The translations under genes and the position numbers were made by a program. From NCBI GenBank assembly GCA_048881705.1, contig JBHLSH010000028.1, positions 1 through 40,901 on the forward strand: a stretch of DNA of 40,901 bases. The letters are read 5' to 3'. The DNA is from Candidatus Heimdallarchaeota archaeon. Its GTDB lineage: Archaea; Asgardarchaeota; Heimdallarchaeia; Hodarchaeales; Hodarchaeaceae. The notes below the pieces were generated by a model that made no database searches, was not told the origin of the DNA, and saw only the letters and a list, made by a program, of their open reading frames with translations. Shown piece by piece: positions 3,090 to 37,789 of this stretch (its first letter is position 1; each line of letters opens with the position of its first letter).

Positions 3090-3487
3090 GTGTAAAAAGA
3101 TACCATCTGAAAATATGGTTCCATACCCTTAATAAGGCTTTAAACGACATTAAAGTCTCGAGAACGCACATCAGTCATTCACATGAGAGCAATAACAACT
3201 GAATTCCGTTGACATGAGTAGTTAAAGTCCTTTTTCTTATCTCTGAAACATAAATTCTTGTAATACAACCATACCAGCATTAAACATGCGGATAAATCAT
3301 TTATAACAAACTCCCTGTAATCAGAAGCGATCCACTGGAATTTGAATGATTTACGACATGCATATGGAATAGCAAAAATGTTAGATCCCAAGAACTTATA
3401 AACTCCCCTTTTAAATCTTTGCCCAGCAATCTGAGCTAGCGGAACCTTCCCACAAGCATGAGGAACTTTGGAGGGGTTGTTGATTTG

Positions 3488-31965: not shown

Positions 31966-32180
31966 TACTTGAGGAAATTACGCCCAGGATAAAGTTTTCA
32001 CCATTTAAATTCCAGAATACGGCAGTATCGTCCATTTTGGCGACGTTATTTATATTCAAGGTTATCAGGGAATTAACCCCGTACCTAAACACATATTAGA
32101 AGGGGTTGTAAGAACAATATCAAACAAGTATTACAGACCATATGGTCTTAAGTACTAGAGGTACGCCCTAGAAGTACCTA

Positions 32181-33893
32181 GTGGAGATTTTTTTTGTGGA
32201 TAACGACGATTTAAAGGAATCTATTAAGCAGTCTCGTCCGAAGAGGAATCCGGATCATGATATTGATCAATGGCTAACCTTAGAACACTTCCCTGATGAC
32301 ACAAGGGTCAATTTGACAGCACGCGGGCGCAAATTCATTTTTCAAAAGGGAAATATCCAAAAAGACCTGGAAGGTGTAGTAAGTCGTGCCCAATGGTCAC
32401 GGTACAGGTCCAATCCCGAAATGACTATCCCCTTGTCCACCCTCCGTTTATTGATTGGACAATCTAACCATGAAATGTTCATGACTTCATTTACAGTCAC
32501 TTCGATCGGATCAAAAAAGATTCAACTCCCTATTCGACTCCCCATTCGGACCAGGAGGAATCATCTTGCAAAGCTCCTGGCCCTGCTTACTCTGGCCCGT
32601 AACGTCTTCCTCACTGGCACCTATCAAACAGATCAACGTCATAAAGTCGAGGCTCTAATAGAGACCTTTGAGGAAATTTTTGACTTTAATTTATGCCCAG
32701 ATGGTGAAATCGATTATAATCAGAGAGGGTACTATATCAAAATTCCTGTACAACTTTGTCAGGCTTTGATCAAAGTCTTCACTGGTGAATACAAGGCTAA
32801 TTTCCCCCAAATCATTCATTCAGTAGCTATGTGTGAAGACGAACAGGATATCTTAGATTTCGTCCGTCTGTGGCTTCAATTTTCAAGGGTTTATCGGTTT
32901 GAGCAAGGAGAAGATCTGTTCATGTTCAGAGCTTCCGATGAAACTCGTGAGATCGTCAAATTACTAGAAAAACTAGGGGTACAATGTGATACAGGGTCAA
33001 TCATGGAAGGAGGAAATAAATTTGTGCCGGTATATAGGATCCCCAATGTAGCGGATAATGAACTTATCCTCGCCAATCCCTCTGTGGTCTCCCGTTTAAG
33101 ATCTAAAATTGCAAACCAGGATGCACGGATCAAAGAACTAGAAACAATCAAATCATCTTTGGAAACGGAATTGAACGAAACCACACGTAGTGCAAGTGAA
33201 AAAGTACTCTGGTCACGTGGGATGGATGAACGTCTCGTTGAAGAATTAACCGAGAAACTGAAGGAATTTGAACATATTCTTGTCCGTTCGAAACGAGAAA
33301 ATGAAGAATTAAAACGGCTTTTAAGTGAAAGTGGGACAATTTCTGCCAAACAACCTTTTCTAAAAGAGGCAGCAAATGCCTCGAACCTAGCGGAAGATCT
33401 CGAAAAATTGCGCGGAGAAGTAGAAGATTTAAAAACTCGTTTGGCTACTATTGGAGAGCCTAAAGCCAGGGAACTAAGCTATGAGGTTACCCAGAAACTC
33501 ACGATGAAAACAAATCAATCCCTTCCCCAGCAATCAGGTCAAGAAGTTCCACTTGGCGTTGATGTAAACTGGAAGCAATTAGTGAAGACATTCTTAGCCC
33601 ATCCAGATAATTGGATCCTCTTCCTGCTTAGTACCAATCAGGCTTTACCTCGGGGGACAATCGCTCAAATACTTGGCGTTCCCACTGAGAGACGGATGGA
33701 ATTACAAAGACGTTTGAACGATTTTGTGGATAAACACATCTTAAAAGTCGACATGACAACTGAGGGGGAAGAGGTTTATTCTATCGATCGCCTAAACTGG
33801 TCCGATCAGATAACCGCTTACCGTGATATCATCTTGGGCAATAAGGGGGCACCACTCGAAATACGCCAACAGATCCGTAGCGTTTTGAGATAG
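32181..33893 (+). CDS. Hypothetical protein: degenerate LAGLIDADG-like region + coiled coil + C-terminal wHTH
   Basis: 570-aa ORF. Pattern similarity to intein-type LAGLIDADG endonucleases at aa ~110-290, heptad region at aa ~300-425, wHTH-like segment at aa ~475-535. Confidence 0.7.
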   Translation: MEIFFVDNDDLKESIKQSRPKRNPDHDIDQWLTLEHFPDDTRVNLTARGRKFIFQKGNIQKDLEGVVSRAQWSRYRSNPEMTIPLSTLRLLIGQSNHEMFMTSFTVTSIGSKKIQLPIRLPIRTRRNHLAKLLALLTLARNVFLTGTYQTDQRHKVEALIETFEEIFDFNLCPDGEIDYNQRGYYIKIPVQLCQALIKVFTGEYKANFPQIIHSVAMCEDEQDILDFVRLWLQFSRVYRFEQGEDLFMFRASDETREIVKLLEKLGVQCDTGSIMEGGNKFVPVYRIPNVADNELILANPSVVSRLRSKIANQDARIKELETIKSSLETELNETTRSASEKVLWSRGMDERLVEELTEKLKEFEHILVRSKRENEELKRLLSESGTISAKQPFLKEAANASNLAEDLEKLRGEVEDLKTRLATIGEPKARELSYEVTQKLTMKTNQSLPQQSGQEVPLGVDVNWKQLVKTFLAHPDNWILFLLSTNQALPRGTIAQILGVPTERRMELQRRLNDFVDKHILKVDMTTEGEEVYSIDRLNWSDQITAYRDIILGNKGAPLEIRQQIRSVLR

Positions 33894-33938: not shown

Positions 33939-34274
33939 TTACAGGTTATCAATGATTTTTAACGCCTCTAATAACTCCTTTTTCTCTGAGTCCTTTTCCA
34001 CTGGAAGATCAGTTGCCGTAATCGTTGAAGGAGAAGCCTTCTCATCATGGGGTGTTGAGTCGGTATGAGACACTGATTCGTCGTTTAAAGAGGACGATGC
34101 AACCTGAGAGGCCGATTTCAGTGGTAGACCCTGATCAATCGTTATTTTTATGGCGGCAACCTCTTTTTGGAGCAGTGCTAACTTGGTATTTTGCTCCTTC
34201 AGCTGATCACTCAATAATCGGGCTATCTTGGTTAGAGTTTCGATCTTCTTTTCGTTCGTCTCAGGGGATGTCAT
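33939..34274 (-). CDS. Hypothetical protein: coiled coil + low-complexity linker + C-terminal helix
   Basis: 111-aa ORF with an ATG start; heptads IETLTKIARLLSDQLKEQNTKLALLQKEVAAIK; tail KKELLEALKIIDNL. Confidence 0.65.
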   Translation of the reverse strand: MTSPETNEKKIETLTKIARLLSDQLKEQNTKLALLQKEVAAIKITIDQGLPLKSASQVASSSLNDESVSHTDSTPHDEKASPSTITATDLPVEKDSEKKELLEALKIIDNL

Positions 34275-34375: not shown

Positions 34376-35128
34376 TTAAATGATTTTACTGATTTCATCC
34401 ACCAAAAGATCAGCTAATCTTTGAATGTAAAACTCCCCAGCATCCGCTGAAGCTTTTGTCGGATCCCCAAGGATTCCGTTCTCAGTTAATTCTTTCATGC
34501 CATGATCAAATATCAGGGCGATTTCCTTATCACCAAGAGAACCTATATAGCCAGGATCCATTCGTTCTTTGACAATAAATTCTTCAGTTAAACATAACAT
34601 CATAGAGGTCTCGCTTTCACCCGCATGGCCTCCTGATTCTGCTTTTGTAACTCCAAAATTAGCAGAGAATTCCGCAAGCAGATCAAGAAGTCTATTTAGG
34701 TCAGTATAACCCCAAATCCTCACTCCAGGATACAAAGGAGTCAATTCTGTTATGATTTCTTCCGTTATTCTAAAATTCCCGCCATGACTGGGGAACAAGA
34801 GAATTTTCGTAAAGCCATGCCTCACGAGGCTTTCAACATAATCTCTAATGACTGCTTTTAGTGTTGAAGGTTTGAGGGAAATAGTCCCTGGAAAATCTAA
34901 ATGGTGGGCTGAGTTACCCACCTTTATCGTAGGAGCCTGGAGGGTATTTCCCAATTTTATGGCGATTCGATTTGCAACCTCATCTCCCCAAAAAGAGTCC
35001 GTGTATTCAGGTAAATGTGGACCATGCTGTTCAATAGATCCAATACAAAATATTACCTTGTTAAAACCTTTATCTATGGCGTGCTTTATATCTGGCCAGG
35101 CCATTTCCTCGGTTCGAATGGTTTGCAT
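34376..35128 (-). CDS. Creatininase / creatinine amidohydrolase family protein
   Basis: GSIEQHGPHLP..TD, SAHHLDFPGTISL, SHGGN, GGHAGESETS, NGILGDPTKAS...G. Confidence 0.92.
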   Translation of the reverse strand: MQTIRTEEMAWPDIKHAIDKGFNKVIFCIGSIEQHGPHLPEYTDSFWGDEVANRIAIKLGNTLQAPTIKVGNSAHHLDFPGTISLKPSTLKAVIRDYVESLVRHGFTKILLFPSHGGNFRITEEIITELTPLYPGVRIWGYTDLNRLLDLLAEFSANFGVTKAESGGHAGESETSMMLCLTEEFIVKERMDPGYIGSLGDKEIALIFDHGMKELTENGILGDPTKASADAGEFYIQRLADLLVDEISKII

Positions 35129-35281
35129 GATATTTTCTCCTTTGCAAAATATTTCTCCGTTTAGAATCAGCAGGTTAAATTCTCAAGGTTGATGTCTAGT
35201 TGGAAGTTTATTTTTATTCGTATCGATGGTGTATTCAAAATCGATTGTTTTATTTTCTAGTAAAACCCAGAAAATTTTCTC

Positions 35282-37789
35282 TCAGGTAAAAAATTCCATC
35301 AAGTTTACTTGTCCAGATTCTAATTCCTGCCCTGACAGATCTAACGCTCCTAGTAGTTGATCAAAAGTTGAATCAATCATAGTTTTGTAGGCCTTTACAT
35401 CTATTTGTGTTACAGGAGTGACCAGCTCCACTGGCGTAACTCGATCGCCACTCTTGGTTTTAACGAAACGAATTAATGTACCTGCCTTTATTCGGCCTGG
35501 TTGCTTCTTTTCGAGCTGGCGAGCCGCCTTAACATGCTGTGAGTTAACCTTATATCTGTCCAAAGGCATTGTCAATTGCATAGTGATTGCCAGATCTTCA
35601 CTAGTGTATCCTCTTTTCTCCAAGCGTTGATATATCGAGCGAACAAGTTTTTTTACTCTTTCTTTTGCTTCATCAAATTCTTCATTGGAATGTACATGGC
35701 TAAGGATTTTGAGTACATCACGAAATCCTTCCTGTAGGAAAGGTGGTGTGTTACGTTTCTTGCCCATAAGACCTTTAACATCCACTTTGGAATCGGGAAA
35801 CACACCAAAATAGTTCTTTTTAAGTTCAGAGAGAACCATATACCGATAGGTTTTTTCCATTTCCAATCCCACTCCGAGATCGCGCTGACTCCATTGAATA
35901 ATCTCCTCGATCTGTTCTGGAGTTGGAGATAAAAGAAATACCGAATCAGTATCACCGTACAAAACTGTAACTCCCAATTCACGAGCTTTTGCCACAGTTC
36001 TCTCGATGGCATCACGTCCATATGCTGTGGTCGAATCAGCAACAGGAAGACAGTATAATTGAAAACGATCACTACCCAATACACCGTAGGAGGCATTTAT
36101 CAGTACTTTAAGGCTCCGTTCTAGAATTTGCAAGAAATCTCTGTGTGGGGTCTCCTTTTTCGATTCGGGTTTTAACCATTGGACACGAACATCCTTGATA
36201 AACCCTATGATGTCAGAAATAACACCACGTTTTTTCGTGCAGACCCAATAATCTGTTTGAGGGACTTTATTGCTGCGACAATCACCATGCGTACAATTTA
36301 TGGTCTCATAGCTTAGATTAAAAGTTCCAATGATGCTAGGATACAGGGAGGCGAAATCTAAAACTGCAACATCGAAATGGACCCCCGGTACCGGATCAAT
36401 TACCAATGCACCCTTGTACTTTTTCCCCTTTATAAGGGCCTGAGAGCTTGCTATCGATCCTTTTTTTAGTTCTATGTCCTCAGGATTCGGAATGAAGTAT
36501 TTTTTCCGGCGGTGTTCACTATAAAACATACTTCTGACCCAATTAGATACGCTTGTTCTGACCAGATCGTCTAGAGGAGTTCGAGAGATACGGGCTAGTA
36601 TAAAAATGAGATTTAGGGGAGTACGGTTATCAAAGAACAGTAAGTCCAAGGTGATCTTGGCATCCCGAGCGCAGTAATGAATGAGCTCCCATTCGGAAAG
36701 CTGGGCAATTTCCGTTGTGAGGTTGAGCTTTCCTATCCCTAACATGGCTTCTGCGATTGCATCCAGAGTTTCCTCCGTGTAACGATTCCCAAACGCGTAA
36801 GATCGGATTGCTACATTGTGATAGAACCGGTAAGTATCAATATGGATTGCATGAGTGAAGTTACAATCCTTATTCCGACGGTTCCATATAATTGGGCTAG
36901 AACTTCGAATCCCTAGGTGCCTTGCCCGTTCGTGCATATAGGGAAAATCGAAATTGTCTCCATTAAAGGTGACGATCATTGGATAGGCCTTTAGGATTTC
37001 AAAGGCCTTTTTGAGGAGCTCGCGTTCCTCTGTAAAATGAAAGATTTCGATTTCCGGCAGATCATCGGGTCTAAATCCTTTTGAAATTTGCTCGCGTTCG
37101 AGAACTAACGCGGTTCGCTTTCCTTGGCTATCTGCAAAGCAGATACAAATGATCGGAAACTTAGGATCTGTGGGTTGGGGAATCTGGCCGGCAGAATAAT
37201 CAGTCTCAATATCACACGCGATTACCCTCATTTCAGGAATTTCTTGAACAAAATCGTCCTGAAACACCTCAAGCAACCCTTTATATTGAGCCAAATTCTC
37301 TACAACAGCTTTGGGAATTCGCATCCCTGTACTGCTGCTTTGAGAAGGAATAAATCGACTTATTTCAGGATCCCACCAATATTTTCGGCCGGGAACCAAC
37401 TGCACATCGTAAAGCCAATTACGGTGATATTTAATGCGAGATTCCCAAGTTTCCTGGTTAAGTTCTTTTTTGATTATATCTCGAACCTGAGGAACTTCGC
37501 TGGGCGTGGGAGTTACAATGCGCGTGAAATCTCTTTCTATATCATCTAAAAGATCCATTCGAGCAACTGAATCAATTCTTTTGATAACAGGAGACAATGA
37601 GCTAAGTGATGAAATACGATCAATGGTTTCTTTACTATAACAGTACGGTTCATGACCATAAGTATCCGTTACGTAAACTATTTTTTGAGCCTGAACATCT
37701 AATAGTTTTATCCCCGCCCCGTTAGAGTTTGCGTCATAAACTGTGGACAGAAGGAAATAGTCCCGATTTGTAAATAACTGGTCAGACAT
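35282..37789 (-). CDS. polB1: Family B DNA polymerase, PolB1 type
   Basis: Exo DIETD, FNGDNFDFPY, YCARDA; pol DFASLYPSII, KVLINASYG, YGDTDS, KKNYFG, KGLMGKK. NLSYET and LYCLPVA segments are typical of PolB1. No intein. Confidence 0.95.
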   Translation of the reverse strand: MSDQLFTNRDYFLLSTVYDANSNGAGIKLLDVQAQKIVYVTDTYGHEPYCYSKETIDRISSLSSLSPVIKRIDSVARMDLLDDIERDFTRIVTPTPSEVPQVRDIIKKELNQETWESRIKYHRNWLYDVQLVPGRKYWWDPEISRFIPSQSSSTGMRIPKAVVENLAQYKGLLEVFQDDFVQEIPEMRVIACDIETDYSAGQIPQPTDPKFPIICICFADSQGKRTALVLEREQISKGFRPDDLPEIEIFHFTEERELLKKAFEILKAYPMIVTFNGDNFDFPYMHERARHLGIRSSSPIIWNRRNKDCNFTHAIHIDTYRFYHNVAIRSYAFGNRYTEETLDAIAEAMLGIGKLNLTTEIAQLSEWELIHYCARDAKITLDLLFFDNRTPLNLIFILARISRTPLDDLVRTSVSNWVRSMFYSEHRRKKYFIPNPEDIELKKGSIASSQALIKGKKYKGALVIDPVPGVHFDVAVLDFASLYPSIIGTFNLSYETINCTHGDCRSNKVPQTDYWVCTKKRGVISDIIGFIKDVRVQWLKPESKKETPHRDFLQILERSLKVLINASYGVLGSDRFQLYCLPVADSTTAYGRDAIERTVAKARELGVTVLYGDTDSVFLLSPTPEQIEEIIQWSQRDLGVGLEMEKTYRYMVLSELKKNYFGVFPDSKVDVKGLMGKKRNTPPFLQEGFRDVLKILSHVHSNEEFDEAKERVKKLVRSIYQRLEKRGYTSEDLAITMQLTMPLDRYKVNSQHVKAARQLEKKQPGRIKAGTLIRFVKTKSGDRVTPVELVTPVTQIDVKAYKTMIDSTFDQLLGALDLSGQELESGQVNLMEFFT

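Follow-up and report, generated by a model that had tools for sequence, protein, structure and literature searches.

A predicted nuclease-dead LAGLIDADG-fold protein, probably DNA-binding, confined to the archaeal order Hodarchaeales

WhiA is so far the one well-studied case of a LAGLIDADG homing endonuclease that has been turned into a host gene regulator (PMC3384342). In the endonuclease I-DmoI the acids D20/21 and E117 stand at the bases of the two LAGLIDADG helices, while T. maritima WhiA carries Arg and Gly at those two positions (PMC3384342). Here we report on a 40,901-nucleotide stretch of DNA from a Candidatus Heimdallarchaeota archaeon (contig JBHLSH010000028.1; the whole stretch is called the window below) and on one protein-coding gene within it, the target, whose product is best described as a second LAGLIDADG endonuclease domestication, architecturally distinct from WhiA and confined to Hodarchaeales. 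This order came out as the sister group of eukaryotes in one major analysis (PMC10307638), although the title of a later one puts eukaryotic origins outside Heimdallarchaeia (PMC12222021). In the literature searched, we found none linking LAGLIDADG to Hodarchaeales or Heimdallarchaeia.

Predicted fold and loss of the catalytic site

The whole protein was modelled with AlphaFold2 from family alignment A1, which gave a mean predicted local distance difference test score (pLDDT) of 76 with confident blocks at amino acids (aa) 30-300 and 464-570. A second model of aa 25-300 alone, built from a 43-sequence alignment, reached a pLDDT of 91.7 and a predicted template modelling score of 0.88. When Foldseek was run against the PDB, the top ranks were taken by PI-SceI, the TliVMA intein, PI-PkoII, WhiA, I-Tsp061I and I-DmoI, in agreement with the initial annotation, which was made from the sequence alone and had recognized a LAGLIDADG domain here; the ESM Atlas has a model of its own for the protein, and it too falls on LAGLIDADG_3 and VMA-intein clusters. 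For residues 123-300 the double LAGLIDADG homing-endonuclease fold is a high-confidence prediction, and at the level of fold the protein belongs to that superfamily. The paired fold anticipated for aa 110-290 is present in the model, though not in every element: the second half-domain follows the exact order (helix 221-234, strands 237-238 and 245-250, helix 253-265, strands 270-276 and 280-288, helix 291-298), and the first half has a single strand (147-150) between helices 1 and 2, with beta2 missing and strands 106-123 of the preceding module adjoining it.

None of this likeness can be seen in sequence searches. Pfam, NCBIfam and PDB phmmer searches with the target protein returned nothing but coiled-coil noise at aa 300-430, and the LAGLIDADG Pfam profiles (PF00961, PF03161, PF14528 and others) gave no match at E<=10 in the window protein and none at E<=1 in 36 family members. 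An exhaustive phmmer search of 1.84 billion cluster representatives recovered only 20 proteins, all of them full-length members or fragments of the same family, and a profile search (A3) of 400 Asgard genomes and a 5.8-billion-protein set for N-terminal-only or differently fused relatives likewise found only full-length members and fragments. We also tested for homology with profiles built from 30 intein LAGLIDADG_3 loci of the same class; in hmmsearch no score exceeded 6 bits, and hhalign against the same-class LAGLIDADG_3 profile gave non-significant probabilities of 0.4% and 3.6%, with the 3.6% alignment out of register. In the weak HMMER alignments to intein domains only the register agrees with the structural mapping, pairing LIGLLIGDG with LLALLcLsKN.

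The fate of the active site could be followed through the structural alignments, in which I-DmoI 4-180 lies on aa 123/124-300 with a constant offset of 118-120 at both ends. This offset places D20/21 at about aa 138-141 and E117 at about aa 235-237; the mapping rests on alignment offsets and is good to about 2 residues, not on a residue-level superposition. Across the 43 sequences, column 140 is K (24) or R (17) and column 141 is N, G or H, whereas at the second site column 235 is S in 39 and column 236 is R in 42 and K in one. Neither columns 137-146 nor columns 232-240 show an acid in more than a stray sequence. Active LAGLIDADG enzymes have a conserved, metal-binding Asp or Glu at the base of each helix, and here there is none; since no column in either range is acidic beyond a stray sequence, and K/R140 and S235-R236 stand there instead, the canonical catalytic centre is, on the evidence of the aligned sequences, absent from the whole family. 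DNA cleavage by the canonical mechanism is presumably not an activity of this protein. The initial annotation had noted the loss of the catalytic acids from both motifs, LAKLLALLTLARN at aa 129-141 and ILDFVRLWLQFSR at aa 224-236, and both lie where it placed them. It had also remarked that no splicing motifs flank the domain, and indeed the Hint and Intein_splicing Pfam profiles give no match at E<=10. What flanks the endonuclease-like domain is a helix-turn-helix (HTH)-like module on one side and a helical hairpin on the other, and the open reading frame (ORF) stands alone with no host protein, which is not the arrangement of an intein.

The remaining domains complete an architecture not unlike the one first proposed (Table 1). 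The HTH-like stretch read from the sequence, VSRAQWSRYRSNPEMTIPLSTLRLL at aa 66-90, falls on two helices of the model (69-77 and 85-92), and the module that contains it (aa 25-122) packs as a single unit with the LAGLIDADG-fold domain after it; its likeness to XRE-type HTH domains, five-helix bundles with an HTH, is weak. The coiled coil of about 125 aa and the winged-HTH-like C-terminus that were expected downstream are both in the model, as helices 302-338, 343-383 and 401-425 and a winged helix at 464-570. This C-terminal domain has the element order of a MarR-like winged helix together with a profile match: searched against the PDB, the 36-member family profile gave a single informative match, the MarR/EmrR regulator 3nrv (E 7e-4, profile positions 448-540), and 6 of the 36 members match Pfam HTH_20 (best E 3.2e-5).

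Table 1. Coordinates of the gene, its predicted domains and an upstream palindrome in the window
Feature	Position	Strand	Remarks
Whole gene	32181..33893	+	570 codons as listed, stop 33891-33893; probable start GTG 32196, giving 565 aa
Low-confidence N-terminal tail, aa 1-24	32181..32252	+	pLDDT about 41; variable, gapped in alignment A1
Most constrained module, aa 25-122	32253..32546	+	Predicted helices 47-54, 69-77, 85-92, 96-103; short strands 106-123
Double LAGLIDADG-fold pseudo-dimer lacking both catalytic acids, aa 123-300	32547..33080	+	Predicted structure
First LAGLIDADG-equivalent helix and base, aa 129-141, LAKLLALLTLARN	32565..32603	+	Column 140 K/R in 41/43 where I-DmoI has D20/21
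Second LAGLIDADG-equivalent helix and base, aa 221-236, EQDILDFVRLWLQFSR	32841..32888	+	S235 in 39/43, R236 in 42/43 where I-DmoI has E117
Long helices, helical hairpin or coiled coil, aa 301-425	33081..33455	+	Predicted helices 302-338, 343-383, 401-425; conserved WSR..DER turn
Disordered variable linker, aa 426-462 (37 aa)	33456..33566	+	pLDDT 29-41; dN/dS 0.26; length varies in A1
MarR-like winged helix-turn-helix, aa 463-570	33567..33890	+	Predicted a1-a2-b-a3-a4-b-b-a5-a6; invariant N477 W478
Imperfect 30-nt palindrome	32127..32156	.	Perfect 14-nt core AGACCATATGGTCT at 32135-32148; about 50 nt before the probable start; candidate operator only

Gene, distribution and genomic context

The ORF at 32181-33893 on the plus strand is present as first listed, and it is a genuine gene under strong purifying selection and not a chance ORF, because it has 71 homologues at 32-95% identity, every one annotated as hypothetical, and because comparison with the 95%-identical orthologue in a related genome (L052) by the Nei-Gojobori method gave a synonymous rate (dS) of 0.40, a nonsynonymous rate (dN) of 0.022 and a dN/dS of 0.054. 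The listed start probably needs correcting to the second GTG at 32196, since GGAG at 32183-32186 lies 9 nucleotides (nt) upstream of this codon and since this is also where the 95%-identical orthologue P0002 (565 aa) begins, as does the record in the ESM Atlas.

The window's genome has one copy of the gene. In a set of 400 genomes from the phylum, 20 of the 21 belonging to the same genus-level group carry it, the lone miss being a 74%-complete genome, as do both genomes of a sister family within the same order; every other Asgard genome in the set lacks it, including all 31 of the next family. Carriers by record name include Candidatus Hodarchaeum mangrovi, which NCBI taxonomy places in Hodarchaeales, and Heimdallarchaeota B3_Heim. 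Within one archaeal order, Hodarchaeales, to which it is confined, the gene is fixed, syntenic and present as a single copy. One genome of the genus (G072) has two full-length copies on different contigs (C30 and C379), and with a contamination estimate of 9% it is likely to be two strains in one bin and not a case of duplication. L052 (JBHLRO010000018.1) is labelled 'Candidatus Thorarchaeota archaeon TM1M.79', and along with the 95%-identical orthologue it carries a complete 11-gene syntenic block at 71-96% identity; this label, like the 'Hermodarchaeota' labels on other members, looks like the misassignment of Hodarchaeales genomes by submitters.

Canonical LAGLIDADG_3 domains, mostly in inteins, occur in 70 of the 83 genomes of the class. 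Pfam LAGLIDADG_3 finds a match in 20 of 21 genomes of the same genus, but none in the window's own genome (90.9% complete). In that genus we also found free-standing LAGLIDADG proteins of 313-344 aa (L046, 1367-2308, minus strand; L047, 979-2010, plus; L048, 7-945, minus). In these proteins the motifs are intact (ILGYIFADG, RGYFDGDG), the N-terminus carries a Myb/HTH-like segment and the C-terminus a zinc ribbon with a basic tail. They look like active homing endonucleases. As a donor these intact genes were rejected, their similarity to the target family being undetectable. The intein and free-standing LAGLIDADG genes of the class form a pool of possible ancestors, none of which is detectably similar to the target in sequence.

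In about 20 genomes of one genus-level group the target sits in a conserved block: an FeS protein, a geranylgeranyl reductase-like protein, Gar1, S8e, a VTT membrane protein, the target, a small coiled-coil ORF, PolB, RsmB and NMD3. The two loci of the sister family have other, unrelated genes around the target homologue: an Arf-like GTPase and PRPP synthetase at one, lipid-synthesis genes at the other. This indicates that the adjacency to PolB reflects a gene order inherited from a common ancestor; the block is syntenic only within the genus-level group, and on this ground we rejected a functional link to PolB. At 34376-37789 of the window (minus strand) PolB lies on the opposite strand to the target, as it does in L052, and in both genomes a creatininase-family gene separates it from the small ORF. 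In the remaining related loci with enough flank (18 of the 20 further loci, L053-L072) PolB is on the target's strand and the block has no creatininase match, so the arrangement in the window and L052 is a lineage-specific inversion plus insertion.

The small ORF (111 aa; 33939-34274, minus strand) is convergent with the target and is kept in 19 of 22 related named loci at 36-71% identity. Its N-terminal part is a helix (NAKKIETLTKVARLLGDQI..) and its C-terminal part the conserved S[ED]K[EQ]ELLxALK[VI]ID[NDE]L; the region between the two is disordered and variable, and no Pfam profile matches the protein. We considered it as an obligate partner of the target and rejected it, as it is not found beside the sister-family gene. 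At the sister-family locus L044 a 63-aa, ribbon-helix-helix-like ORF (..EEVLERINDLVRMGIYSNRSEFIRAAI..; 3119-3310, plus strand) lies just downstream of the target homologue.

The palindromic site with the AGACCATATGGTCT core is unique in the genome. It is not kept in the orthologous upstream regions, where other short palindromes share no common motif, and no conserved operator was found; four of these regions carry (A)TTCATGAA(T) instead, at about -93 to -105.

Proposed function and its alternatives

What does a dead endonuclease domain do in a fixed gene? We favour a domesticated, catalytically inactive LAGLIDADG-fold protein that most likely binds DNA, probably as a dimer and probably as a transcription regulator, and give this reading a probability of roughly 0.65. 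The predicted fold, the loss of both acids and the fixation and constraint of the gene lend support to the original suggestion of a domesticated dead LAGLIDADG domain used as a DNA-binding scaffold. In the mechanism that we propose, the C-terminal MarR-like winged helix, aided by the helical hairpin, would dimerise and read a DNA site, as MarR proteins do, and the tightly conserved N-terminal HTH-like module would form one rigid unit with the dead endonuclease domain. This unit may either contact DNA or, as in WhiA, serve as the dock for a partner protein. Owing to the long flexible linker (aa 426-462), the two DNA-binding ends would be able to work at variable spacing.

Contact of the rigid unit with DNA would use the strand residues Q149, N180, Y185, K187, Y238, R239, R250 and Y285, plus R182 in the adjoining hairpin turn. 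These are conserved polar, basic and aromatic residues, and their conservation leaves room for direct nucleic-acid contact. The LAGLIDADG region of the window protein is net acidic, with 20 K+R against 26 D+E, and it is here that the strongest competing explanation comes in, namely that the same dead fold is purely a protein-protein docking platform and leaves all DNA contact to the winged helix at the C-terminus, perhaps with the N-terminal HTH. There is precedent for this in WhiA, whose domain docks WhiB and RNA polymerase, and the WhiA LAGLIDADG-equivalent domain makes only peripheral DNA contact while docking WhiB (PMC10243135). On account of the net acidity and of this peripheral contact we treat docking as a serious rival, if one that we think unlikely, as the residues just listed are conserved on the remaining strands and in the hairpin turn and no partner gene is kept beside the target across both families.

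Other readings are less well supported. With two separate putative DNA-binding ends, long helices and, in the model, a flexible linker of 37 aa, a dimer would hold four DNA-binding modules on flexible arms, and such a protein might serve nucleoid architecture or chromosome segregation by bridging or looping DNA, and not be a regulator of particular promoters. The gene's being universal and single-copy in the order would suit this role, and a B. subtilis WhiA mutant is reported to affect chromosome segregation (PMC10714963). However, we found no SMC, ParB or kleisin signature, the NCBIfam SMC-related match spans the coiled coil only (E 0.006, 15 bits against a cut-off of 300), and the gene context gives no pointer to segregation genes, all of which makes this role rather improbable in our judgement.

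A more ambitious version of the DNA-binding reading, and a long shot, is that the protein is an order-defining Hodarchaeales factor in which the nuclease-dead LAGLIDADG saddle would read a long asymmetric site without cutting it, alongside the MarR-like dimer, for example as a master regulator or as a binder of a chromosome landmark (origin, terminus or segregation site). It would then represent an archaeal homing endonuclease captured independently of WhiA, in a lineage that some analyses place next to eukaryotes.

The ribosome-biogenesis neighbours would be in line with an RNA-binding, maturase-like factor acting on rRNA or introns, yet this neighbourhood is whole-block synteny in one genus-level group and is absent in the sister family, maturases score below archaeal endonucleases and WhiA, and the MarR-like winged helix points to duplex DNA, so that such a function is distinctly improbable. 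Given the endonuclease fold, and given that intact LAGLIDADG genes, both free-standing and in inteins, are plentiful in the same class, one might suppose that the protein has kept nuclease activity, or is a selfish free-standing homing endonuclease, with a non-canonical active site. This is hardly credible for a syntenic, single-copy gene in a fixed position with a dN/dS of 0.03-0.05, with no conserved acid at either helix base and, given its absence from all other Asgard genomes, with no patchy spread of the mobile-element kind.

Relation to known LAGLIDADG systems and winged-helix regulators

The target is among few proteins that are both universal in and restricted to Hodarchaeales. Sequence searches of Pfam, NCBIfam and the PDB miss the family, and its members carry no annotation beyond 'hypothetical', so that naming it from its structure and proposing a function open to test closes a genuine gap in annotation.

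Compared to MarR/ArsR-type regulators and to the extended winged helix of TFE/TFIIE-alpha, the target differs in that the domain terminates a multidomain protein of 570 aa; against this C-terminal domain TFE-alpha, ArsR and MarR have tied structural scores. From the archaeal intein and intron LAGLIDADG endonucleases (the TliVMA/PhoVMA intein, PI-PfuI, PI-PkoII, I-DmoI and I-Tsp061I; Pfam LAGLIDADG_3) it is set apart by the loss of the Gly and the Asp/Glu of both motifs and by the missing beta2 of its first half. It also has no Hint domain, lies outside any host gene or intron, is not mobile and shares no similarity with them that a hidden Markov model detects.

In overall design the target parallels the bacterial transcription factor WhiA (DUF199; PDB 3hyi, 3hyj, 8dy7 and 8dy9), whose dead LAGLIDADG domain is tethered to a C-terminal HTH that reads DNA; for the target a dead LAGLIDADG fold and a tethered C-terminal winged helix, a putative DNA reader, are predicted. 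The C-terminal HTH of WhiA is sigma-region-4-like, whereas that of the target is a MarR-like winged helix, and the target has an additional N-terminal HTH-like module and a helical hairpin of about 125 aa. WhiA is found in Gram-positive bacteria and the target family in one archaeal order, and the WhiA_N, LAGLIDADG_WhiA and HTH_WhiA Pfam profiles give no match at E<=10 in the target and none in the 36 members. A separate origin from WhiA is plausible, though not proven, because archaeal intein endonucleases match the target at least as well as WhiA does. The family would thus be the second case of its kind, this time in archaea, with an HTH-like module, a dead LAGLIDADG domain, a helical hairpin and a MarR-like winged helix, and as this architecture differs from that of WhiA and no sequence link joins the two, our data suggest that the same domestication route was taken twice.
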